From IMG/VR virus record IMGVR_UViG_2585427735_000020: DNA of 36,110 nt; one strand, given 5' to 3'. The stretch is from a virus (Duplodnaviria > Heunggongvirae > Uroviricota > Caudoviricetes). The translations under genes were made by a program, and so were the position numbers. Shown here in pieces: positions 1 to 36,110 of this stretch. The first letter of the stretch is position 1; each line of letters starts with the position of its first letter. The notes under the pieces were generated by a model. It made no database searches. It was not told the origin of the DNA and saw only the letters and a list, made by a program, of their open reading frames with translations.

Positions 1-318
1 ATGAAAAAGATAGCTGCTATATCATTAATTAGTATTTTTATTATGTCTGGTTGTGCTGTGCATAATGATGAGACAAGTATCGGTAAATTTGGTCTTGCAT
101 ATAAAAGTAATATTCAGCGTAAACTCGATAACCAATACTACACCGAAGCCGAAGCTTCTTTAGCCAGGGGCAGAATATCTGGTGCAGAAAATATAGTAAA
201 AAATGATGCAGCCCATTTCTGTGTTACTCAGGGCAAAAAAATGCAGATAGTTGACCTGAAGACAGAAGGTGCAGGATTACATGGCGTCGCTCGTCTGACA
301 TTCAAATGTGGAGAGTGA
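1..318 (+). CDS. yegR: Small putative lipoprotein (host gene flanking the prophage), 105 aa
   Basis: ORF with N-terminal signal peptide and lipobox-like IMSGC; lies outside the att repeat; position matches the yegR side of the cyaR-yegQ locus as I recall it. Confidence 0.5.
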   Translation: MKKIAAISLISIFIMSGCAVHNDETSIGKFGLAYKSNIQRKLDNQYYTEAEASLARGRISGAENIVKNDAAHFCVTQGKKMQIVDLKTEGAGLHGVARLTFKCGE

Positions 319-475
319 GAATATTTTTTGGTAAGCGTCAAACATGCGCGTTCTGGTTGTGCTTAGCCGGAACCTGTGCGAGCACGATGCCGTTACGTGA
401 AAGGCATCGTGCTATGAAGGGAGATTCTATCGATGTGGTCAATGGAAGACGGTGACCAGGGATAGGGCTTATGCA

Positions 476-503
476 TAAAAAATAAGCCCGTGTAAGGGAG
501 ATT
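476..503. repeat. attL core, 28-bp direct repeat TAAAAAATAAGCCCGTGTAAGGGAGATT
   Basis: Exact copy of 34577..34604; matches the P2 att core as I recall it; adjacent to int. Confidence 0.85.
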
Positions 504-582
504 TAGGGTGTCACCAGTAGGGGCTTTCAACGGTACAATGCGGGTTTGAGCGGCATAAATTACCACTGAAAGCCCTTAAACG

Positions 583-1596
583 TTACTCTACTGTGGACAC
601 TGTGTGGACACTCTCGGCTTCAGTACCACCTCTTAGCGGATTAAGAGAAATGGCGTCCTGAAGGTACTCTGGCGCAAAATGAGCGTAAACCATAGTTTGC
701 TCAATCCGCGTGTGACCTAGTATCCGTTGTAGCGTGATAATACTTCCTCCATTAATCATGAAATGAGTGGCAAAGCTGTGCCTTAGTGCATGTGTGGCTT
801 GCCCCGTTGGCAAATCCGGTTTTATTGCTTTCATTGTTCGTCTGAAGCGAGGGTAATCAGCATCAGGGAATAAAAAACCTCGTTTGTTATCCGCGATCAT
901 TTTGGCAACAGCCTCTGAGATCGGGACGGTGCGTGGTTTGTTTGTTTTCGTTTTAACAAACGTGACGCGGTTATGGATGATATTTTCTGCTTTCAAACGA
1001 GCTGCTTCTCCCCAACGTGCTCCTGTACTCAGGCAAAGAATCGCAATCTTTTTGTTGTCGCCGTCAAGTGCTGCAAGCAGTAAGGCAATTTCTTCCTGTG
1101 TGAGATAGCCTGTTTCTGGTTTTTCCTCCTTAAGCCTCTTTGTCCCTCTGATAGGGTGCTCACCAAAGAATAACTCCGCTTCAATCAGGGCTGTAAACAT
1201 GCCGCTAATACATGTTAAATCACGATTGATACTCGAAGGTTTAATACCCTGACTTCTTCGGGTGGCGCAGTACTGGCTGATAAGGGATTTCGTGATTTGA
1301 AATGCGCATGGGTCATTCGTTATTTTTGTGAAGATTTCAATTTTTCCAAGATTAGATTTCCCATTCTCTTCGTGTTTACCCTTTAAATCCCACCAGATCT
1401 GTGTCAGTTCCGACAGACGTCGTTTGTCTGTTGGTTTTGATAGCCATTCTTTATTGTGGTGGTTGTACAACGTGTATTTTTCGAAAGCGACAGCTTCGCT
1501 TTTCTTATCAAACTTCCTACGGATGCGTTTTCCGTTACGTCCAGTAGGGCGGATGTCCACTTCATATCGACCATCATCGAGTTTTTTGATTGCCAT
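583..1596 (-). CDS. int: P2-type tyrosine integrase, 337 aa
   Basis: 337-aa ORF with C-terminal R...HxxR...Y-type catalytic region (ATHALRHSFATH, RILGHTRIEQTMVYAHF); adjacent to attL. Confidence 0.9.
   Translation of the reverse strand: MAIKKLDDGRYEVDIRPTGRNGKRIRRKFDKKSEAVAFEKYTLYNHHNKEWLSKPTDKRRLSELTQIWWDLKGKHEENGKSNLGKIEIFTKITNDPCAFQITKSLISQYCATRRSQGIKPSSINRDLTCISGMFTALIEAELFFGEHPIRGTKRLKEEKPETGYLTQEEIALLLAALDGDNKKIAILCLSTGARWGEAARLKAENIIHNRVTFVKTKTNKPRTVPISEAVAKMIADNKRGFLFPDADYPRFRRTMKAIKPDLPTGQATHALRHSFATHFMINGGSIITLQRILGHTRIEQTMVYAHFAPEYLQDAISLNPLRGGTEAESVHTVSTVE
592..611. promoter_or_regulatory. Tandem direct repeats TGTGGACAC x2 (candidate Int arm-type binding sites, P' arm)
   Basis: Two 9-nt copies at 592..600 and 603..611, 11 bp apart, overlapping the int 3' end; related TGTGG(T/A)C motifs occur next to attR at 34519..34537. 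Confidence 0.4.
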
Positions 1597-6269: not shown

Positions 6270-6451
6270 AAGCGGGGAGTGGTCTTCAAAATGCTCCTGT
6301 AGCATTACGTGTAGACTTATAATAGAAATTATATACAAATCAATAAGTTATTTTTGTTTTGTATTATGTGTTGATGCTTTGGTTTCATAATGTAAAAATT
6401 ATCAGAAATTCTCTGCTTGTAGTTTCGTCATATAACGAAAGGGATTGCTTA

Positions 6452-9400
6452 ATGTTTAATTCTTATACTGAATTTGTAAAGTCTTTGGTATTGGATATTC
6501 GGAAAGGTAAAGACGTTAGTTTTCTTCTGGGGTCAGCCGTGAGTTGCTCGCCGGAGGGGAATGGGGTACCGGGCGTTTCAGGGATGAATGATATTCTGCG
6601 GCAATATATGATTGATTTAGATATTTATGATGGCTTTGAAAGTAACATAATCGGTTTAAGTGAAACTGATAAATATCAAAAAAGTTTCGAATACCTTTTG
6701 AAGGTAGGTGATCAAGATGAAGTTAAAGAAATAATGGCTCTTGCAATGAATAATGCAAGGAGCGGCGACAAATGGTTAATTACTAAATCACTTGATGATT
6801 TTTCAAGGCTTATTTCAGAAACTAGCATTAAAGTAAAATGCATACTTACAACAAATTTTGATCCATTGATTGAAGAGGCATTGTTTAGAGTAAATAGAAA
6901 TTGTAATGTACATAATCTTATTGTAGATCAACCAATTGGTAGCGTTACCAGCTATTCAGGCGAATCCATTCCCGTAGTGCATTTACATGGAGTTTGGGAT
7001 GGAGATACTATGCATACTCAAACTCAGCTTTCTTCATTGAGGAAAAAAATTGAGTTGTCAATAAAAAATATATTGGATACAAGTAAATTATATGTTATTG
7101 GATATGCAGGTTGGGATGATGTTTTTCTACAGGCGTTAAGAAACATCGTCCATGAGTTTCAGCCAAGTTATAATGTTAGATGGGGTTTTTATAAAAACTC
7201 AATTGATGATGTGAGTAAAGAACATTCACGATTGATTGAAATTATTCAACCAGCGCTTGTTAATGCTCGTTTTCAAGGATATGTTGGGGTTGACTGTAAT
7301 ACATACTTTGAAGATGCTTTGGCTGAGATTAGTAAAAAAAAACAATTAAGTAAGTTTGTTGTAAAAAAAACTGGATTACAGCCGATAACAGAAAGCATAG
7401 TTATTTCGCTGAGACCCTATAACCTTTCAGTTGAGCCTGCGCATGATATAATTAGATTAGTAGAGCAAAAAAAAGCCACTGATTATTTAAATAATAACAA
7501 TCATTTTGAGCTTGTTTCTGGTTGGGGATACGGAAAAGCAGGTTTTTTATATTCTTTTATTCATGATGAATTTTATGATTTCACATGTTATTATAGTGAT
7601 GTCAATGGATTGACTGAATCTCGTGATATTGAAGTTAAAATAAAACAGGATATCGGTATCGATATTGCAACCTTCATATCTAATAATGGATTAGGAAAGC
7701 GGATTTTAATTCTTGATAACATAGCCAGACTTCCTCCATCAACTAAAGCTTTCTTTTCTGAGATTGCGAAATTATCATCAGATCTTAGTTCTGGTGTGAA
7801 AGTTATTTTTGTATCAGCGACATGTAACGGGATATGCTCTGGTATAGTGGAATTACAGCCTTTATCTTTAGATGATATAAAGGAGTATATTAAAGTTGGC
7901 ACTGATATTACTGAAATAAAAAGAGAGAAACTTGATAGGTTGTATGAAATAACAAATGGAATACCTTTAAAATTAGATAAGGTTAAAGAGTATTATGAGT
8001 TAATGTCATTTGATGAAGTCCTTGATGCAGGGAATATTGTTGTTTCGGCAGAGGGAACAAATACGGACATTCCACACTACATATCCAAGCAAATAAACGA
8101 GATTAGAAGTGATAATAGAAAACTATATTCATTACTATGCATTTTCTCTATGCTTGAATATGGGGAGAAATTGACAAATATTCGCTCTTATTATTCATCG
8201 TATGATTTTCATTTTGATGATTTCGCAAAACTAGAAAGATATGGTCTGATTTATACAATTACAAAGGATAATTATAAAATATTAAGGATATCACCAGTTG
8301 TTAGTGATTTTGTAAAGCAGGGTATGGATCCTAACCAACGGTATGAACTTGTAAAAAAATCCCTAGGACTTTGTATCGGTAGCGATTGGATGTCAGGGAA
8401 AGTGAGAGTCTCTCCTACAGTGAAGATGATGCTTGAAAGCACGGAGTTTTATCCTGGAAATGTCCATTCAGCTATTAGTTCATACTTTTCATTAATAGAT
8501 ATTAATAATTATGATCGAGAAGTCAAATCATTAATACATGTTTCTATAGGATATTGCATCTTTTTAAAGAGTGCATGTTACTATAAAGAACTCGTCGCAT
8601 TTTCTCGGATGCTTTATTCTAATATTTCTCATTTGGATATTCTTGATAAATTTAGGGCTGCGTATTTTTTGGCTACAAGTTTAAGAATGATTGATGAGGT
8701 TGAACAAAGTGTTGAATTTATTGAGCCTTTAAGTGATGAGTTCGAGGCAAAAGAGTTTTGTCAAAAGGAATATTATTTTAAAATGCTTGATAATATTATG
8801 ATGGCATGCTCTGAATATAATGATGAAAAAGCACGAAAATACGCAATAAAATTAAAAAAGATAGCTCCAAAGTCTTCTAGTTATTATATCAATGCTGAAG
8901 TTCATTTGGCTGACGAATTGTCTCATGGTAAAAGGGTTAATAAGCTTATTTCTCTCGAGAAAAAGTCCCGAGCTGCTGGGTATAACACGCTGGCTAATAA
9001 TATTAGCATTAAACTTCATTATTTGTTTTCTGGTTCATCTTTCAAATATATTGATAATGCCATAAAAAATGAAGGGGGAGTGTATACTAAGGCCAGGGCG
9101 TTACTTGTTAAGTATGAAGAGTTGGTACGTTGCGGAGAGTTTGAAAAAATTGATGCGGAGGGGGTGAGGGAATTAAAGGCCGTTTATGATTATTTGTTCT
9201 TGCAGCGATTAGATGAGCTTTTTAACAGATGTACCGATGTGTTATGGCAGCTTATGAAAGCGTATCGGGATGTTAATGGCTTATACTACTTATTTAAGCG
9301 TGGTTCTGTAATTTGGCGTGTAACCTCATCTTATGATAAAGAGTTAGAATATGCTAAGGAGTTGAATGAGCAACAGTTTGATATCAGTGGAGGAGGTGAT

Positions 9401-9487
9401 GATATGAAATATTTATCAATCAGACTGAGTTTTTTGGCACTAAAGGTGGAGCGAGATAAGTGTCTGATTGATGCTCCAACATTGTAA
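6452..9487 (+). CDS. Cargo protein, 1011 aa: N-terminal SIR2-like domain + STAND-like NTPase core + C-terminal helical repeats (SIR2-STAND/Avs5-like or DSR-like candidate defence protein)
   Basis: ATG 6452 with GAAAGGGA SD; SIR2 motifs FLLGSAVS...GVPG, TTNFD (6848..6862), HLHG (6980..6991), IGYAGWDD; then GWGYGKAG (7520..7543), ILILDN (about 7700..7720), GIPLKL (7958..7975); AT-rich, replaces tin/old between A and cos. Confidence 0.6.
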   Translation: MFNSYTEFVKSLVLDIRKGKDVSFLLGSAVSCSPEGNGVPGVSGMNDILRQYMIDLDIYDGFESNIIGLSETDKYQKSFEYLLKVGDQDEVKEIMALAMNNARSGDKWLITKSLDDFSRLISETSIKVKCILTTNFDPLIEEALFRVNRNCNVHNLIVDQPIGSVTSYSGESIPVVHLHGVWDGDTMHTQTQLSSLRKKIELSIKNILDTSKLYVIGYAGWDDVFLQALRNIVHEFQPSYNVRWGFYKNSIDDVSKEHSRLIEIIQPALVNARFQGYVGVDCNTYFEDALAEISKKKQLSKFVVKKTGLQPITESIVISLRPYNLSVEPAHDIIRLVEQKKATDYLNNNNHFELVSGWGYGKAGFLYSFIHDEFYDFTCYYSDVNGLTESRDIEVKIKQDIGIDIATFISNNGLGKRILILDNIARLPPSTKAFFSEIAKLSSDLSSGVKVIFVSATCNGICSGIVELQPLSLDDIKEYIKVGTDITEIKREKLDRLYEITNGIPLKLDKVKEYYELMSFDEVLDAGNIVVSAEGTNTDIPHYISKQINEIRSDNRKLYSLLCIFSMLEYGEKLTNIRSYYSSYDFHFDDFAKLERYGLIYTITKDNYKILRISPVVSDFVKQGMDPNQRYELVKKSLGLCIGSDWMSGKVRVSPTVKMMLESTEFYPGNVHSAISSYFSLIDINNYDREVKSLIHVSIGYCIFLKSACYYKELVAFSRMLYSNISHLDILDKFRAAYFLATSLRMIDEVEQSVEFIEPLSDEFEAKEFCQKEYYFKMLDNIMMACSEYNDEKARKYAIKLKKIAPKSSSYYINAEVHLADELSHGKRVNKLISLEKKSRAAGYNTLANNISIKLHYLFSGSSFKYIDNAIKNEGGVYTKARALLVKYEELVRCGEFEKIDAEGVRELKAVYDYLFLQRLDELFNRCTDVLWQLMKAYRDVNGLYYLFKRGSVIWRVTSSYDKELEYAKELNEQQFDISGGGDDMKYLSIRLSFLALKVERDKCLIDAPTL

Positions 9488-21475: not shown

Positions 21476-23794
21476 ATGAGCACAAAATTCAGAACCGTTA
21501 TCACCACTGCCGGTGCAGCAAAGCTGGCAGCGGCAACCGCACCGGGAGGGCGGAAGGTCAACATTACCACGATGGCCGTCGGGGATGGCGGTGGTAAATT
21601 GCCTGTCCCGGATGCCGGACAGACCGGGCTTATCCACGAAGTCTGGCGACATGCGCTGAACAAAATCAGCCAGGACAAACGAAACAGTAATTATATTATC
21701 GCAGAGCTGGTTATTCCGCCGGAGGTGGGCGGTTTCTGGATGCGTGAGCTTGGCCTGTACGATGATGCGGGAACGTTAATTGCTGTGGCGAACATGGCCG
21801 AAAGTTATAAGCCAGCTCTTGCCGAAGGCTCAGGGCGTTCGCAGACCTGCCGTATGGTCATCATCGTCAGCAGTGTGACCTCAGTGGCGCTGACCATTGA
21901 CACCACAACGGTGATGGCGACGCAGGATTACGTTGATGACAAAATTGCAGAGCATGAACAGTCACGACGTCACCCGGACGCCTCGCTGACCGCAAAAGGT
22001 TTTACTCAGTTAAGCAATGCGACCAACAGCACGTCTGAAACACTGGCCGCAACGCCGAAAGCGGTAAAGGCCGCGTATGATCTTGCTAACGGGAAATACA
22101 CTGCGCAGGATGCCACCACAGCGCGAAAAGGTCTTGTCCAGCTCAGTAGCGCCACCAACAGCACGTCTGAAACGCTCGCCGCAACACCAAAAGCGGTAAA
22201 GGCAGCATATGACCTTGCTAACGGGAAATACACTGCACAGGACGCCACCACAGCGCGAAAAGGTCTTGTCCAGCTCAGTAGCGCCACCAACAGCGATTCT
22301 GAAACGCTTGCGGCAACGCCAAAGGCGGTTAAGACAGCGTATGACCTTGCTAACGGGAAATACACTGCACAGGACGCCACCACGGCGCGGAAAGGTCTTG
22401 TCCAGCTCAGTAGCGCCACCAACAGTGATTCTGAAACGCTGGCCGCAACATCAAAAGCGGTGAAGTCTGCCTATGACAATGCTGAAAAACGTCTTCAGAA
22501 AGATCAGAACGGTGCGGATATTCCGGGAAAGGATACCTTCACGAAAAATATCGGTGCCTGTCGTGCTTATAGCGGCGCTTTGAGCACTGAAGCCGGAAAC
22601 TGGACAACCGCTCAGTTTATTGAATGGCTGGATTCCCGTGGTGCATTTAATCATCCGTACTGGATGTGCAAAGGCTCATGGTCATATGCAAATAACAAAA
22701 TCATTACGGATACCGGATGTGGTGATATCCACCTGGATGGTTGTGTCGTCGAGGTCATGGGAACTAAATCTGCAATCACTATCCGAGTGACCACGCCGAC
22801 AACATCAAGTGGTGGCGGTACAACCAGCGCGCAATTCACTTACATTAATCATGGGGACGGCTACTCCCCCGGCTGGCGTCGTGACTGGAATCGTCAGGGC
22901 GACTCAATGACCGGAACGATTAATCAGGATGGCGGAAGCCAGAATGCCTATATGTCTACGGCCTTATGTTCAGGCACCAGAGGCGGCAAAAAATATCTCA
23001 GAAAGTTTCGTGGTGGAGAAGGAGACACTATCTGGCATGAAACAGTACAGGGCGGGGTAGTTCGCTGGGCGACTGGTAATACTGATGCTCAGGAAGAATT
23101 ATCACTCAGCTCCGCTTATGGTCTCCGTTCAAGAGGTGAGATTACATCACTCAGTGCTAATGGTCTGCGCATTGCTTATGGCAATTATGGTTTCTTTATC
23201 AGGAATGATGGCAGCAGCACTTATTTTATGTTGACTAAATCAGGTGACAGATTAGGCAGTTATAATAATTTAAGACCGCTGATTATAAATGATGCCACGG
23301 GTGCTGTATCAATGGGGCATGGCCTGAATGTTACTGGTGATATTGTCTCAAGTACCAAAGTACGTGCCGGTAGCGGGAAAAAATTCACGGTCAGCAGCAG
23401 TAATACATCCACGAAGGAAGCCGCATTCAATTTGTGGGGAAACTCAAGTCGTCCGGTGGTGGCTGAATTAGGTGATGATGCAGGCTGGCATTTTTACAGT
23501 CAGAGAAATACAGATAACAGCATCACTTTTGCTGTTAACGGGCAGGTATCACCATCTAACTATGGCAACTTTGATTCACGCTATGTCCGGGATATCCGGC
23601 TTGGTGGTGCTGCCACATACAAACCTGCGAACAATGGCATGACATGGACACATCAGGCACCGTCCGGGTGTGTATATTCCGGCATTATTGTTCAGGATAC
23701 CGGCTCAAACTCTGCCGATAACATTGGTGGCATATATTACAGACCGGTGCAGAAATACATTAACGGGACATGGTATAACGTGGCGCAGGTATAA
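21476..23794 (+). CDS. H: Tail fibre protein gpH, 772 aa, with internal tandem repeats
   Basis: Conserved N-terminal tail-fibre region, then 132-nt repeats, then a lower-GC C-terminal receptor-binding region. Confidence 0.85.
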   Translation: MSTKFRTVITTAGAAKLAAATAPGGRKVNITTMAVGDGGGKLPVPDAGQTGLIHEVWRHALNKISQDKRNSNYIIAELVIPPEVGGFWMRELGLYDDAGTLIAVANMAESYKPALAEGSGRSQTCRMVIIVSSVTSVALTIDTTTVMATQDYVDDKIAEHEQSRRHPDASLTAKGFTQLSNATNSTSETLAATPKAVKAAYDLANGKYTAQDATTARKGLVQLSSATNSTSETLAATPKAVKAAYDLANGKYTAQDATTARKGLVQLSSATNSDSETLAATPKAVKTAYDLANGKYTAQDATTARKGLVQLSSATNSDSETLAATSKAVKSAYDNAEKRLQKDQNGADIPGKDTFTKNIGACRAYSGALSTEAGNWTTAQFIEWLDSRGAFNHPYWMCKGSWSYANNKIITDTGCGDIHLDGCVVEVMGTKSAITIRVTTPTTSSGGGTTSAQFTYINHGDGYSPGWRRDWNRQGDSMTGTINQDGGSQNAYMSTALCSGTRGGKKYLRKFRGGEGDTIWHETVQGGVVRWATGNTDAQEELSLSSAYGLRSRGEITSLSANGLRIAYGNYGFFIRNDGSSTYFMLTKSGDRLGSYNNLRPLIINDATGAVSMGHGLNVTGDIVSSTKVRAGSGKKFTVSSSNTSTKEAAFNLWGNSSRPVVAELGDDAGWHFYSQRNTDNSITFAVNGQVSPSNYGNFDSRYVRDIRLGGAATYKPANNGMTWTHQAPSGCVYSGIIVQDTGSNSADNIGGIYYRPVQKYINGTWYNVAQV
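21995..22500 (+). repeat. In-frame tandem repeat inside H: 132-nt (44-aa) unit, about 3.7 copies
   Basis: Units start at 21995, 22127, 22259, 22391; unit is KGLVQLSSATNS(T/D)SETLAATPKAVKAAYDLANGKYTAQDATTAR. Confidence 0.85.
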
Positions 23795-23797
23795 TTT

Positions 23798-24325
23798 ATG
23801 CAGCATTTGATAAATATAACGGTGGGTAATCCAAAAACGGTTGAACAATATCAATTGACAAAGGACTTTGATGTTGTCTGGTTTTTTTCAGAAGATGGTA
23901 AGAACTGGTACGAAGAACAAAAGTATTTTGCTGATGACACGATAAAAATAGCGTACGACAAAGATAATATTATCCGCTATGTGGAAAAGGATGTGACAGC
24001 TATCAGACCAGATGGATTAAGTGTGGTTGAAGTGGCGGATATTACTGCTAACCGACGGGCGGACATTTCAGGGAACTGGATGTTTAAGGACGGCAAAGTG
24101 ATTAAACGCATTTATACGGCAGAGGAATTGCAGCAGCAGGCAGAAAACCGGAAAGCCAGACTTCTTGCAGATGCTGAATCCGTGATTTTGCCACTGGAGC
24201 GCGCTGTCAGGCTGAACATGGCAACAGATGAGGAGCGTAGCCGACTGGAAGCATGGGAACGCTACAGTGTTCTGGTCAGCCGTGTGGATCCTGCAAATCC
24301 TGAATGGCCGGAAATGCCGCAATAA
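23798..24325 (+). CDS. G: Tail fibre assembly chaperone gpG, 175 aa
   Basis: 175 aa immediately after H. Confidence 0.8.
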
Positions 24326-24360
24326 GTTGTATAAGCTCTGGTGTGAGATTACATATCTAT

Positions 24361-24800: not shown

Positions 24801-25736
24801 GTGGTTACATATAATTCAATGTTGTTACCCCCCCCTAAATCTTGGGACGAATTTGAGGATATGTGCAAAAGTTCATTCCAACTGCGATGGTCCAATCCTA
24901 ATCTGAACAGACATGGACGGTCAGGGCAGCGGCAGGATGGAGTTGATGTATATGGTGATGACTCTCTTGGGCGTTTCGTTGGAATTCAGTGTAAAAATAC
25001 AGTATCAGGAATCAGTACGGCGACAATCGATGATGAATTACTCAAGGCTGAAAAATTTCGCCCAAAAATTACGGTTCTTTACATCGCTACGACAGCGCCC
25101 AGGGATGTTAGCATTCAGCGCTATGTAAGAACACTCAATGATGCCAGACAATTAAAAGGCCTGTTTCCTGTCGATGTGGTTTTCTGGGAGGATATTAGCT
25201 TTGATTTAAGCAAAGACCCAGCTGTACTCAAAATGTACTACCCGCAAATGTTCGAACGACACCAACCGACGAGGGAAGAATTTTTGCGCAAGAGAGATAT
25301 CTCAAATTTGTCGACATTGTTGAATGTTATTGATTTTCATTCAACAATAGACCATTTGCAGTGGGGCGCAAAATACATTCATTCATTAATTATTGAAGAA
25401 TACGATAATATTTTGAACATTTTAAACTCACCTGTTTTTCAACTGAATGATACAGCTTTAAAGAATGTTACAATTGATTTTGCAACGGCCTGGCGTGATC
25501 TAATTATCTTGTTTAGAAAAGCTCCATATAATTATTCAGCACCAAATGATACTTTTAGTTTTATAAATCCCGGTGACCACTGTCGAAATCAGGAGGAAAG
25601 CGATTTATACGACGAAATCACGCATAGCATGAGTAATCTCAAAGATAAAATTAGTACTTTTTGTGACTTTATAAATAATCACTACCATGAAATAAACTTA
25701 ACCGAAACGAGCGCGCAAGCCAGGAAATATTATTAA
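24801..25736 (+). CDS. Cargo protein, 311 aa: Mrr-type PD-(D/E)xK restriction-endonuclease-like N-terminal domain + uncharacterised C-terminal domain
   Basis: GTG start 7 nt after AAAGGA; FEDM...RHGRSGQRQDGVDVYGDD...GRFVGIQCKNT (nt about 24912..24998) resembles the Mrr catalytic core (D...D...QxK); AT-rich, between G and FI. Confidence 0.55.
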   Translation: MVTYNSMLLPPPKSWDEFEDMCKSSFQLRWSNPNLNRHGRSGQRQDGVDVYGDDSLGRFVGIQCKNTVSGISTATIDDELLKAEKFRPKITVLYIATTAPRDVSIQRYVRTLNDARQLKGLFPVDVVFWEDISFDLSKDPAVLKMYYPQMFERHQPTREEFLRKRDISNLSTLLNVIDFHSTIDHLQWGAKYIHSLIIEEYDNILNILNSPVFQLNDTALKNVTIDFATAWRDLIILFRKAPYNYSAPNDTFSFINPGDHCRNQEESDLYDEITHSMSNLKDKISTFCDFINNHYHEINLTETSAQARKYY

Positions 25737-26518: not shown

Positions 26519-27385
26519 ATGGTCCGTTTTAACTTACTAGAAAATGCGTTGGATTCAGTGGAAACCGGGCTGGACTACTTTAACAAAGCGCTAGAAGGGC
26601 ATGATCGACGTGACTACAAACAGTGCCTGCTTAACCTCTTTCAGGCCGCTGAGCTATTGTTGAAGGCCGTAGTTTCGCGCAATGGGTCTGGAGCGATTTT
26701 TAATCCAGCATCGCTTCAAGAAAAATGTGTGGATCCGGCGCATCCAACCGAGTCAGAATTACACCAGTGTAAATCTGTCAACGTCAACCAGCTTTGTAAG
26801 CTGTTAAAGACATATTACCCAGCCGAATTTTCTGAATCTGCATTACAAATGATGAAAACGGTGGGTCAGTTGCGTAATAACCTTCAGCATTTTGCCCTTG
26901 AGGTTCGTCCGCAAGAACTGGCAATGCAACTGAGTGAACTGTACCAACAAATTTTTCGTCCCGCATTCGTCATAATTCAGTCAGATGAGACCGAAAATTC
27001 ATGGAACTCTGATTTACGTCAAGACATCATCGCTCTTGAGCAACAATTCCTTGATATAACTGTTAACCAGGAATACACCCTTGCACTTTGTCCCGTTTGT
27101 GAGAGTTTTTCACATTTTATCCTTTACCAAGGTGAAAGCTTTCCGGCACGGACTCACTGTATCTGTTGTGGTTTCAGCCTGAATAATCTGCAAACTTGGG
27201 ATTTTCAGGAATGTCCTGAATGTAGTGTCCCATCCGTAATTTATTTACCGGAACAAAGGGTCGGTGTCTGTCTCTGGTATAAATGTGAATACAGCAAGAT
27301 GGATGGTTTTGTTCCTATGGAGCCTTGTGAATGTGGTGCATTCCGGATGGAAGGTCATTGCAGTAACTGCGATCTTGAGGAATAG
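26519..27385 (+). CDS. Cargo protein, 288 aa: HEPN-like helical N-terminal domain (Rx4H) + C-terminal multi zinc-ribbon domain
   Basis: ATG 26519 after a G-rich SD; LRNNLQH at 26873..26890; CPVC, CICC, CPEC, Cx4C, CEC, CSNC pairs across 27089..27370. Confidence 0.55.
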   Translation: MVRFNLLENALDSVETGLDYFNKALEGHDRRDYKQCLLNLFQAAELLLKAVVSRNGSGAIFNPASLQEKCVDPAHPTESELHQCKSVNVNQLCKLLKTYYPAEFSESALQMMKTVGQLRNNLQHFALEVRPQELAMQLSELYQQIFRPAFVIIQSDETENSWNSDLRQDIIALEQQFLDITVNQEYTLALCPVCESFSHFILYQGESFPARTHCICCGFSLNNLQTWDFQECPECSVPSVIYLPEQRVGVCLWYKCEYSKMDGFVPMEPCECGAFRMEGHCSNCDLEE

Positions 27386-34257: not shown

Positions 34258-34476
34258 ATGTTTCATTGTCCTTTATGCCAGCATGCCGCACATGCGCGTA
34301 CAAGTCGCTATATCACTGACACGACAAAAGAGCGTTATCACCAGTGCCAGAACGTGAATTGCAGCGCCACGTTCATCACTTATGAGTCGGTACAGCGATA
34401 CATCGTGAAGCCGGGAGAAGTCCACGCCGTGAGGCCGCACCCCTTGCCGTCAGGGCAGCAAATTATGTGGATGTAA
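34258..34476 (+). CDS. ogr: Late gene transcriptional activator Ogr (zinc-finger), 72 aa
   Basis: ATG 34258 with GGAAGAGGTG SD; MFHCPLCQHAAHARTSRYITDTTKERYHQCQNVNCSATF with CxxC...CxxxxC. Confidence 0.85.
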   Translation: MFHCPLCQHAAHARTSRYITDTTKERYHQCQNVNCSATFITYESVQRYIVKPGEVHAVRPHPLPSGQQIMWM

Positions 34477-34489
34477 TTACAAACAGAAA

Positions 34490-34513
34490 GCCCCTCAGTC
34501 GAGGGGCTTTTTT
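34490..34513 (+). terminator. Rho-independent terminator after ogr
   Basis: GCCCCTC-AGTC-GAGGGGC hairpin followed by TTTTTT. Confidence 0.65.
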
Positions 34514-34576
34514 GTCGATGTGGTCAATGTGTGGACGTGACCAGAAATAAATCCTTTTATTTCAATTTGTTGTACG

Positions 34577-34604
34577 TAAAAAATAAGCCCGTGTAAGGGA
34601 GATT
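34577..34604. repeat. attR core, 28-bp direct repeat identical to attL
   Basis: Exact copy of 476..503; forms the 3' terminator end of the cyaR sRNA. Confidence 0.85.
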
Positions 34605-34664
34605 ACACAGGCTAAGGAGGTGGTTCCTGGTACAGCTAGCATTTTATGGGTTATGTTTTTCAGC
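34578..34664 (-). ncRNA. cyaR: CyaR (RyeE) Hfq-dependent small RNA
   Basis: Minus-strand sequence GCTGAAAAACATAACCCATAAAATGCTAGCTGTACCAGGAACCACCTCCTTAGCCTGTGTAATCTCCCTTACACGGGCTTATTTTTT matches CyaR as I recall it; 3' end overlaps the att core. Confidence 0.6.
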
Positions 34665-34748
34665 GAAACGGATGATAACCTTAATAAATGCAGCTGTATG
34701 TGATCGGTTTCTAAGAATTTTCCATCCGGGAAAAATAATCGAAATTAA

Positions 34749-36110
34749 TCACTTACCGTGGGGATTACGCGTGGTTTCCCCGGAGAAATTACGCATCAGC
34801 AGCGCGTAATTGAGCTCAAGATCCTGCGGGACCGGGAGCCACACAGTATAACCATCGCCTGGTGCTATCGGCATAGCTTCGCCTTTGGCGTTTTCCATGT
34901 GCTCAAGGGTAAAATTAATGTTGCCTTGCGGCGTCATCAGCTCAAGGCTGTCGCCAACGGAGAATTTATTTTTCACCGCTACCGCCGCGAGGTCCCCCTT
35001 GCGCTCACCGGTAAACTCACCAACAAACTGCTGGCGGTCAGAAACTGAATAACCGTATTCGTAGTTCTGATAATCGTCGTGAGTATGACGACGCAGGAAA
35101 CCTTCGGTATAGCCACGATGCGCCAGACCTTCCAGAGTTTCCAGCAGGCTGGTATCGAACGGTTTTCCCGCAGCGGCGTCATCGATAGCTTTGCGGTAAA
35201 CCTGTGCGGTGCGTGCACAATAGTAGAAAGATTTGGTACGACCTTCGATTTTCAGCGAATGCACGCCCATTTTGGTCAGGCGTTCTACATGGGCGATGGC
35301 GCGCAGATCTTTCGAGTTCATGATGTAAGTGCCGTGCTCATCTTCAAACGCGGTCATATACTCGCCCGGACGCTGGGCCTCTTCGATCATAAACACTTTG
35401 TCGGTTGGTGCGCCGATACCCAGCGTCGGCTCAACATTTTGCACCGGAATCGGCTCGTACTTGTGTACGATGTTGCCAACATCATCTTCTTTCCCTTCCT
35501 GGACGTTGTACTCCCAGCGGCAGGCGTTGGTGCAGGTGCCCTGGTTCGGGTCGCGCTTGTTGATATAGCCAGAGAGCAGGCAGCGACCGGAGTAGGCCAT
35601 GCACAGCGCGCCGTGAACGAAGATCTCGATCTCCATATCCGGCACCTGATTGCGGATCTCTTCAATCTCTTCCAGCGACAGCTCGCGAGAGAGGATCACG
35701 CGGGTCAGGCCCATTTGCTGCCAGAATTTCACCGTCGCCCAGTTCACGGCGTTAGCCTGCACCGAAAGGTGGATCGGCATTTCAGGGAAGTGCTCACGCA
35801 CCAGCATAATCAGCCCTGGATCGGACATAATCAGCGCATCCGGCCCCATTTCCACCACCGGTTTCAGGTCACGGATAAAGGTTTTCAGCTTGGCGTTGTG
35901 CGGTGCAATGTTGACCACGACATAAAACTTTTTCCCCAGCGCGTGGGCTTCATTGATGCCGAGCTGAAGATTTTCGTGGTTGAATTCGTTGTTGCGCACA
36001 CGCAGGGAATAACGCGGCTGGCCCGCATAAACAGCATCTGCGCCATAAGCGAAAGCGTAACGCATATTTTTCAGCGTTCCCGCCGGGGAAAGGAGTTCCG
36101 GTTTAAACAT
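34749..36110 (-). CDS. yegQ: Peptidase U32-family protein YegQ (TrhP-like), 453 aa
   Basis: Full-length 453-aa ORF starting MFKPELLSPAGTLKNMRYAFAYGADAVYAGQPRYSLRV; host gene flanking attR; starts exactly at the window end. Confidence 0.85.
   Translation of the reverse strand: MFKPELLSPAGTLKNMRYAFAYGADAVYAGQPRYSLRVRNNEFNHENLQLGINEAHALGKKFYVVVNIAPHNAKLKTFIRDLKPVVEMGPDALIMSDPGLIMLVREHFPEMPIHLSVQANAVNWATVKFWQQMGLTRVILSRELSLEEIEEIRNQVPDMEIEIFVHGALCMAYSGRCLLSGYINKRDPNQGTCTNACRWEYNVQEGKEDDVGNIVHKYEPIPVQNVEPTLGIGAPTDKVFMIEEAQRPGEYMTAFEDEHGTYIMNSKDLRAIAHVERLTKMGVHSLKIEGRTKSFYYCARTAQVYRKAIDDAAAGKPFDTSLLETLEGLAHRGYTEGFLRRHTHDDYQNYEYGYSVSDRQQFVGEFTGERKGDLAAVAVKNKFSVGDSLELMTPQGNINFTLEHMENAKGEAMPIAPGDGYTVWLPVPQDLELNYALLMRNFSGETTRNPHGK

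Follow-up and report, generated by a model that had tools for sequence, protein, structure and literature searches.

The prophage, its attachment core and cyaR

The window, by which we mean the whole stretch of DNA that was analyzed (36,110 nt), contains a P2-like prophage with chromosomal flanks on both sides. The features that define the two prophage ends and the right flank are the following.

476-503 (+): attL core, TAAAAAATAAGCCCGTGTAAGGGAGATT; 28 nt, matching the attR core exactly; before integration it was the terminator at the 3' end of cyaR
504-612 (+): P' arm of the resident prophage; Cox-binding region and integrase arm repeats, following the P2 annotation; 98.7% identical to P2
583-1596 (-): integrase gene of the resident prophage; Pfam Int_N and Phage_integrase; 98.7% nucleotide identity to P2 int
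34258-34476 (+): ogr, late-gene activator and last gene of the prophage; Pfam Ogr_Delta; 98% identical to the ogr region of P2
34487-34514 (+): ogr terminator hairpin, the counterpart of the terminator annotated in P2
34515-34542 (+): P-arm integrase site of the resident prophage, of the functional type; repeats TGTGGTC and TGTGGAC; equal to the annotated Int P-arm footprint of P2
34546-34579 (+): IHF site of the resident P arm, the counterpart of P2 annotation 24324-24357
34577-34604 (+): attR core, TAAAAAATAAGCCCGTGTAAGGGAGATT; the present terminator of cyaR
34581-34666 (-): CyaR (RyeE) sRNA gene; full-length match to Rfam RF00112 with 100.7 bits; the attachment core forms its 3' end
34749-36110 (-): yegQ/trhP, right chromosomal flank, from the ORF list and the annotation of identical E. 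coli loci

Sequence comparison of the 28-nt core in the window with the core of P2 attP revealed no differences, and because this core is also the cyaR terminator, the gene regains its 3' end when the prophage integrates. The prophage occupies a site whose core is that of P2 attP, which forms the 3' end of cyaR and which lies between yegQ and yegR. This cyaR-terminator locus is what we take to be the classical P2 attachment site locI (attB locI). Two copies of the integrase arm repeat TGTGGACA are present in the P' arm of the resident prophage, at 592-599 and 603-610.

Several genes inside the prophage were also inspected. A 1042-aa ORF (6359-9487, +), found after the replication gene region, contains a SIR2-like domain (Pfam PF13289, E 2.6e-7) and is probably a defence-type cargo gene at a variable locus of P2. 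Within a 772-aa ORF (21476-23794), which is probably a tail-fibre gene, a 132-nt unit is repeated three times in tandem at 21994-22483 with 83-87% identity between the units. The ORFs at 24801-25736 and 26519-27385 had no match in Pfam.

Phage-arm sequence to the left of attL

The chromosomal DNA to the left of attL starts, in the window, with yegR and is divided as follows; L014 denotes a divergent Escherichia lineage.

1-318 (+): yegR, small lipoprotein gene; 105-aa ORF, 95-99% identical to E. coli YegR; PF27694
319-380 (no strand): spacer downstream of yegR, interior of the presumed relic; no similarity to P2; about 86% conserved between E. coli and L014
381-413 (no strand): hairpin with an 11-bp stem (AGCACGATGCC / GGCATCGTGCT) and an 11-nt loop, without a T tract
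417-426 (+): AAGGGAGATT, the same letters as the final 10 nt of the core
430-457 (+): P-arm integrase arm-type site, a probable vestige; TCGATGTGGTCAATG GGAAGACG GTGACC, aligned to the P2 footprint TCGATGTGGTCAATGTGTGGACGTGACC
458-475 (+): probable remains of the IHF segment of an old P arm; a net 16-nt deletion with the IHF core gone, followed by the core-proximal TTATGCAT

The original prediction for this DNA was that the supposedly bacterial sequence beside attL carries a piece of a phage P arm, left by an older P2-like element. The 15-mer on which it was built, TCGATGTGGTCAATG, was found exactly at 430-444 and at 34515-34529 and was absent from the remainder of the window even when two mismatches were allowed; the chance expectation from shuffled sequences was 0.10 matches, and two matches occurred in 0 of 100 shuffles. 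We likewise recovered the second shared block, in which 448-459 (GACGGTGACCAG) matches 34534-34544 (GACGTGACCAG) except for one extra G, and the difference in spacing to the core, 31 nt on the left and 47 nt at attR. The motif TGTGG(T/A)C had been assigned to both blocks; TGTGGTC does lie within the shared 15-mer, but TGTGGAC is present in the attR copy only and is GGAAGAC in the left copy. Local alignment of 382-475 with 34477-34576 gave a score of 24, compared with a mean of 8.0 and a maximum of 19 in shuffled sequences (a score of at least 24 in 0 of 2000), and the portion of the alignment to the right of the 15-mer was significant by itself (9 of 2000 shuffles). Within the range first proposed, 319-475, similarity to a phage arm can be demonstrated for about 416-475 alone. 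The match is short, which might suggest chance or base composition as its source, but neither the 15-mer nor the alignment score was equaled in the shuffles (0 of 100 and 0 of 2000), and blastn searches with other E. coli haplotypes support the likeness independently; we regard the chance reading as refuted and its probability as practically nil.

The annotation of the P2 record AF063097 places an Int 'P arm' footprint at 24293-24320 and an IHF site at 24324-24357, together with the core, the Cox region and the P' integrase site. The Int footprint (28 nt), TCGATGTGGTCAATGTGTGGACGTGACC, is identical to window 34515-34542, and the left copy at 430-457 agrees with it in the first 15 and the last 6 bases, in the same orientation and on the same side of the core as in P2. 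The left block differs from the P2 arm in that it is chromosomal and away from ogr and in that parts of it have decayed: the first arm repeat, TGTGGTC (434-440), is intact and the second, TGTGGAC in the phage, is mutated. The arm-site consensus for P2-type integrases is tgTGGaCa (PMC3448106), and of the two repeats of this type that a functional P2-type P arm should have, the attR copy has both and the left flank the first. The left flank also lacks the IHF site and the spacing of about 47 nt of a functional P arm; a net 16-nt gap takes out TTTTATTTCAATTT, and this loss of the IHF core is the reason why the left spacing is 31 nt and not 47. Longer variants of this segment, present in L014 and in further lineages of E. 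coli, restore the likeness to the IHF segment of P2. With its second repeat mutated and the center of its IHF site deleted, the left copy is thus a degenerate P arm.

Three further resemblances in the left flank were considered and set aside. The hairpin at 381-413 stands where P2 has the ogr terminator; as a homologue of that terminator it was rejected, the similarity being not significant and a terminator scan making no call. A second copy of the core at 399-429, proposed by way of AAGGGAGATT, gave a permutation p of about 0.03-0.06 and its positions vary among E. coli strains; AAGGGAGATT at 417-426 may at most be what is left of an additional core. Window 323-371 aligned weakly with the right end of phage 186, at 77.6% identity with E = 0.6, which was taken as chance.

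Distribution of the flank and the pristine site

Segment 250-502 of the window was found in 5,418 of the 5,426 complete E. coli genomes, with a coverage of at least 80% in 5,370 of them. The empty site was reconstructed by joining window 250-503 to 34605-34850, and this sequence was recovered as one uninterrupted piece at identities of up to 100%; in 4,562 genomes, 80% or more of it lies together at a single place. The block itself is identical in about 99% of the complete E. coli genomes whether or not they carry a prophage, including thousands with an empty site. This near-universal presence indicates that E. coli normally has the block beside the site and that it is no special trait of one strain.

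In about 100 IMG/VR attL junctions and several chromosomal loci the block was invariant while the segment between block and core varied, some variants being 12 nt longer. The flank of strain N96, one of these longer variants, aligned with the phage arm at 76% identity over 91 nt (blastn, E 1e-9). Among 32 attL haplotypes, 1 of 25 columns was variable in 430-454 against 33 of 132 in the remaining spacer (Fisher p = 0.017), a modest statistic drawn from haplotypes that are not independent. In three of the IMG/VR attL junctions, all from lysogens (L024, L032 and L062), the last 8 nt before the core are TTACGCGT, the K-12-type P-arm ending, and not TTATGCAT; this ending suggests, from the letters of the two arms, a possible exchange of sequence between phage and host arms beside the core.

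Loci with a pristine site were found in Escherichia sp. TW14182 and in two Kluyvera species, where yegS is followed by 85-100 nt and then by the core, without yegR. The Escherichia locus comes from a group of three IMG/VR prophage junctions with a different left flank, in which about 85 nt separate the end of yegS from the core and yegR is missing; it was identified through the YegS of junction L091, which matches the TW14182 protein exactly. Set directly against these pristine loci, E. coli has an insertion of about 800 nt, placed exactly at the attachment core. The far end of the insertion was examined in the empty-site locus of E. coli E2865 (L151), where yegS is followed by the same original B arm of about 85 nt and then by ATAAAAAGTCAGTTCAAGTATGGAGGATTCAGTGGTTACCACCAGGAGCTTGCAATGG; the sequence in the true attL is ATAAAAAATAAGCCCGTGTAAGGGAGATTTAGGGTGTCACCAGTAGGGGCTTTCAACGG. 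Alignment of this degenerate attL (L151 1922-1980) with window 474-533 gave a score of 22, which was reached in 0 of 2000 shuffles. Its P'-specific part alone was equaled in 38 of 5000 shuffles, compared with 3909 of 5000 for the cyaR-side control, and deeper in the relic there is a colinear but weaker match to both P' arm repeats, equaled in 36 of 2000. The degenerate attL, just upstream of yegR and beside yegS, forms the left end of the old relic, and it falls outside the window because the window starts at the yegR ATG. The gene yegR is inside the relic, between the degenerate attL on the yegS side and the P-arm vestige.

The extra DNA in E. coli thus starts at the core, with a degenerate core running into P' at its distal end and a P arm with an intact core at its proximal end. 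An insertion of about 800 nt with a decayed attL on the left and a decayed P arm and intact core on the right is what we would expect of an integrated element that has been almost fully deleted. We detected no residual element genes in the relic and no similarity of its interior to the prophage beyond the att parts. The pristine junction of yegS and core was found in 0 of the 5,426 E. coli genomes, the single near-match being an internal yegR deletion. The outgroups sampled at this locus are thus TW14182 and Kluyvera; a strict 33-nt pattern with which species genomes were scanned missed E. albertii, E. fergusonii and Salmonella. YegR homologues with 78-88% identity were considered as additional outgroups and rejected as error-rich E. 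coli assemblies.

The divergent lineage L014, whose yegS is 87% identical to both E. coli and TW14182, shares the insertion, the degenerate attL (10 of 2000 shuffles) and yegR (91% identity). Its IHF segment is more complete than that of the window, with 85% identity to the phage arm over 74 nt (blastn, E 4e-15). Because L014 shares the relic, the relic must be older than the split of these lineages. It is missing in TW14182 yet present in L014, which is equally distant from E. coli, so that a loss or a transfer somewhere has to be assumed. Between E. coli and L014, yegR and the spacer up to about position 381 are about 86-91% identical, and the segment from about 381 to the core is barely alignable and ends in P-arm-like sequence in both. 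Later cycles of integration and deletion may have replaced this segment, perhaps more than once.

Loci of other kinds were also seen. In four species-genome loci (L006, L011, L012 and L013), sequences other than P2 abut the same cyaR core; two of these records are labeled Enterobacter hormaechei, and their yegQ is 98% identical to E. coli yegQ. It would seem either that other elements use the same site or that the records are mislabeled or mixed. Two Kluyvera intermedia loci (L007 and L018) have a variant P arm (GGATGTGGTAAATGCGTGGACATTGAGAGAAATAAATTC...) beside the same core, which by its sequence appears to show a second arm type among cyaR-integrating P2-like elements, beyond Escherichia.

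Origin and meaning of the proposed relic

We consider it probable that 430-475 is a non-functional vestige of a P arm, comprising an Int arm-type site and an IHF site, from an ancient element with P2-type arms. We infer the following order of events in the history of the relic. In an E. coli ancestor, an element would have inserted itself at the 3' end of cyaR and would later have been almost entirely deleted, so that a degenerate attL, about 700 nt including yegR, the P-arm vestige and an intact attR core were kept between yegS and cyaR. Selection on the cyaR terminator would have kept the core, and the present P2-like prophage would have entered this surviving core, as would other later phages, to the right of the old remains. 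Being the cyaR terminator, the core had to survive, and deletions that inactivate a prophage therefore spare its attR end. A prophage that integrates into the surviving core acquires in this way an attL with old phage-arm DNA on its 'bacterial' side.

The idea of integration into the scar of an older P2-like element is therefore borne out by the P-arm footprint, by the pristine relatives and by the two ends of the insertion. Its authors had located the remnant correctly to the left of attL, and the scar proved to be larger than they supposed, since it includes yegR and has its left end upstream of the window. They had also named an observation that would count against the idea, namely the same sequence by yegR in genomes without a P2-like element. 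Such sequence is indeed present in the thousands of genomes with an empty site, but it does not serve as a refutation because all of those genomes descend from the scarred ancestor.

The narrow form of the idea, a recent and strain-specific scar left by a prophage that was lost shortly before the present one arrived, did not hold. Second-generation scars do occur at this site, as in the D'-ogrK remnant of K-12. In the window, however, the DNA left of attL contains neither a D' nor an ogr fragment (the truncated gene D and ogr that lie left of the site in the K-12 locus are absent from 1-503), the identical block is shared by about 99% of E. coli genomes, thousands of them with an empty site, and a diverged block is present in a second Escherichia lineage, L014. 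The scar is accordingly ancient and fixed, the distribution refutes a recent origin, and we give that reading next to no credence. Similarity alone has no direction, and transfer from host to phage also has to be weighed: aberrant excision, for instance, could have given an ancestor of P2 the cyaR 3' end and the flank downstream of it, and the P arm would then descend from E. coli DNA. The geometry is possible, as an excision that takes DNA to the left of attL would set the B arm beside the core. The arm is found, however, in P2-like phages that integrate elsewhere. The Yersinia phage vB_YpM_46 (YpM46), P24A7b and the more divergent fiAA91-ss have the P2-type terminator, Int site and IHF arm next to unrelated cores and part from P2 only at the start of the core, which means that the arm is phage equipment rather than cyaR flank and that the chromosome got it from a phage. 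The arm repeats of the phage also fit its P' repeats and the integrase consensus (PMC3448106), the degenerate copy is the one in the host, the block is missing from the pristine loci, and capture by a phage does not account for the degenerate core and P' arm found on the yegS side of the insertion in E. coli. Nor was an arm with the 31-nt spacer of the B-arm type found beside an ogr terminator in any of the about 100 IMG/VR junctions or the phage records. A phage source of the B-arm type was sought and rejected, as the block-bearing IMG/VR junctions have the yegR-side flank to the left, wherever they extend far enough to show it; the two phage records with the block, vB_EcoM-720R8 and Phage TP, also contain yegR and so represent chromosomal flank. 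We judge an origin of the arm in the host to be very improbable.

A different question, compatible with an origin of the block as a scar, is whether the retained arm site has a role at present. P2 Int might bind TGTGGTC 31 nt from the core, or gene conversion with resident prophages might keep the block identical to the phage arm; if functional, it could affect the preference for locI, integration, excision or the stability of the lysogen, and the attB and attL of E. coli would then differ from the core-only site of TW14182. The perfect 15-mer, exactly that of P2 in a relic that is otherwise about 67-70% identical, and the low variability of 430-454 among the E. coli haplotypes are weak evidence for constraint or conversion, given the modest statistic described above, and the B arms that end in TTACGCGT hint at exchange near the core. 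On the other hand, one of the two footprint repeats and none of the IHF core is left, and a perfect run of 15 nt within about 76 aligned nt at 67% identity has an estimated chance of about 0.06. Sites free of the block still take P2-like prophages, as seen in TW14182 and in the attL junctions L087 and L104, which have the same flank. A hybrid of host hairpin and full P arm was found in none of the empty-site E. coli genomes; this hybrid is also the predicted product of a recent prophage loss by recombination between the flanking repeats, a route that was rejected for the same reason. A functional or maintained site is in our estimation unlikely, if less so than the other readings weighed here, and the vestige is most likely an inactive, neutral fossil, as far as activity can be predicted from the state of its sites.

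The K-12 remnant, the arm sites of P2 and the build-up of elements at the 3' ends of RNA genes are already known. Barreiro and Haggard-Ljungquist (1992, J Bacteriol 174:4086; listed in PMC3091744) reportedly described a cryptic remnant of P2 that K-12 carries at locI, with the order D' (yegZ)-ogrK-attR. In our comparison the K-12 locus (L003) consists of the yegR flank, 19 nt of core, the truncated D (D'), ogrK, a P arm and the core. It resembles the old relic in that a P2-type prophage at the same locus has been cut down by deletion, with the attR arm and the cyaR-side core kept. It differs in being young (94-96% identical to P2), in having phage genes left and in lying to the right of the 430-475 block, whereas the old relic has att remnants that are about 67-70% identical, contains no phage gene, holds yegR and is found in nearly all E. 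coli. With an old relic and a younger remnant at one locus, K-12 holds two stacked generations of relics: the window has the generation-one relic and an intact prophage, and K-12 has generation one followed by a generation-two remnant.

Integrated elements accrete in tandem and decay at the 3' ends of tRNA, tmRNA and sRNA genes. The site studied here behaves in a similar way, since an element rebuilds the 3' end of the RNA gene, selection keeps the proximal core, relics gather distally and the site stays usable; the difference is that the relic consists of two att ends and one small gene and was formerly taken as plain chromosomal flank of a classical site that has been studied by experiment. 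The same accretion has been described at the sdsR sRNA locus in Salmonella (PMC3333887). Our literature search, which covered sources other than the key 1992 paper on locI, did not find the locI flank or yegR described as the relic of a prophage.

If the relic is what we propose, the arm on the 'bacterial' side of the site that P2 prefers in E. coli consists of old phage DNA and encloses an orphan lipoprotein gene, yegR. The locus would then display three stages of prophage decay at an sRNA-gene site that stays usable: the pristine site of a sister lineage, the old relic found throughout E. coli, and, added to this relic, either the K-12 remnant or an intact prophage. Annotators cannot safely call the DNA just outside attL and attR host, and short arm-like repeats in it do not necessarily show where the resident prophage ends. 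Little follows from this in practice, unless the integrase site that was kept should prove active.

The position of yegR within the relic suggests that the gene may have arrived with the old element, and it could alternatively have entered the scar later. A tblastn search against 50,697 phage records yielded YegR homologues in copies of the host flank only, and yegR as phage cargo was rejected, the copies in phage records being all in host flanks and the homologues with 76-81% identity elsewhere being in a non-phage context. In that context the relatives of YegR are accompanied by a neighbor gene of 110 aa. In some E. coli and in L014, a segment of 170-200 nt directly follows the yegR stop (323/324), as in L002 (374-544), L004, L014 and L148; it is a remnant of the 110-aa neighbor gene (tblastn E 2e-7, 50% over 34 aa) and was lost in the lineage of the window. 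A 12-nt direct repeat, TCTGGTTGTGCT, is present at 46-57, in yegR, and at 352-363, downstream of it, and in strain FDAARGOS_1077 the DNA between the two copies is gone, with most of yegR deleted.
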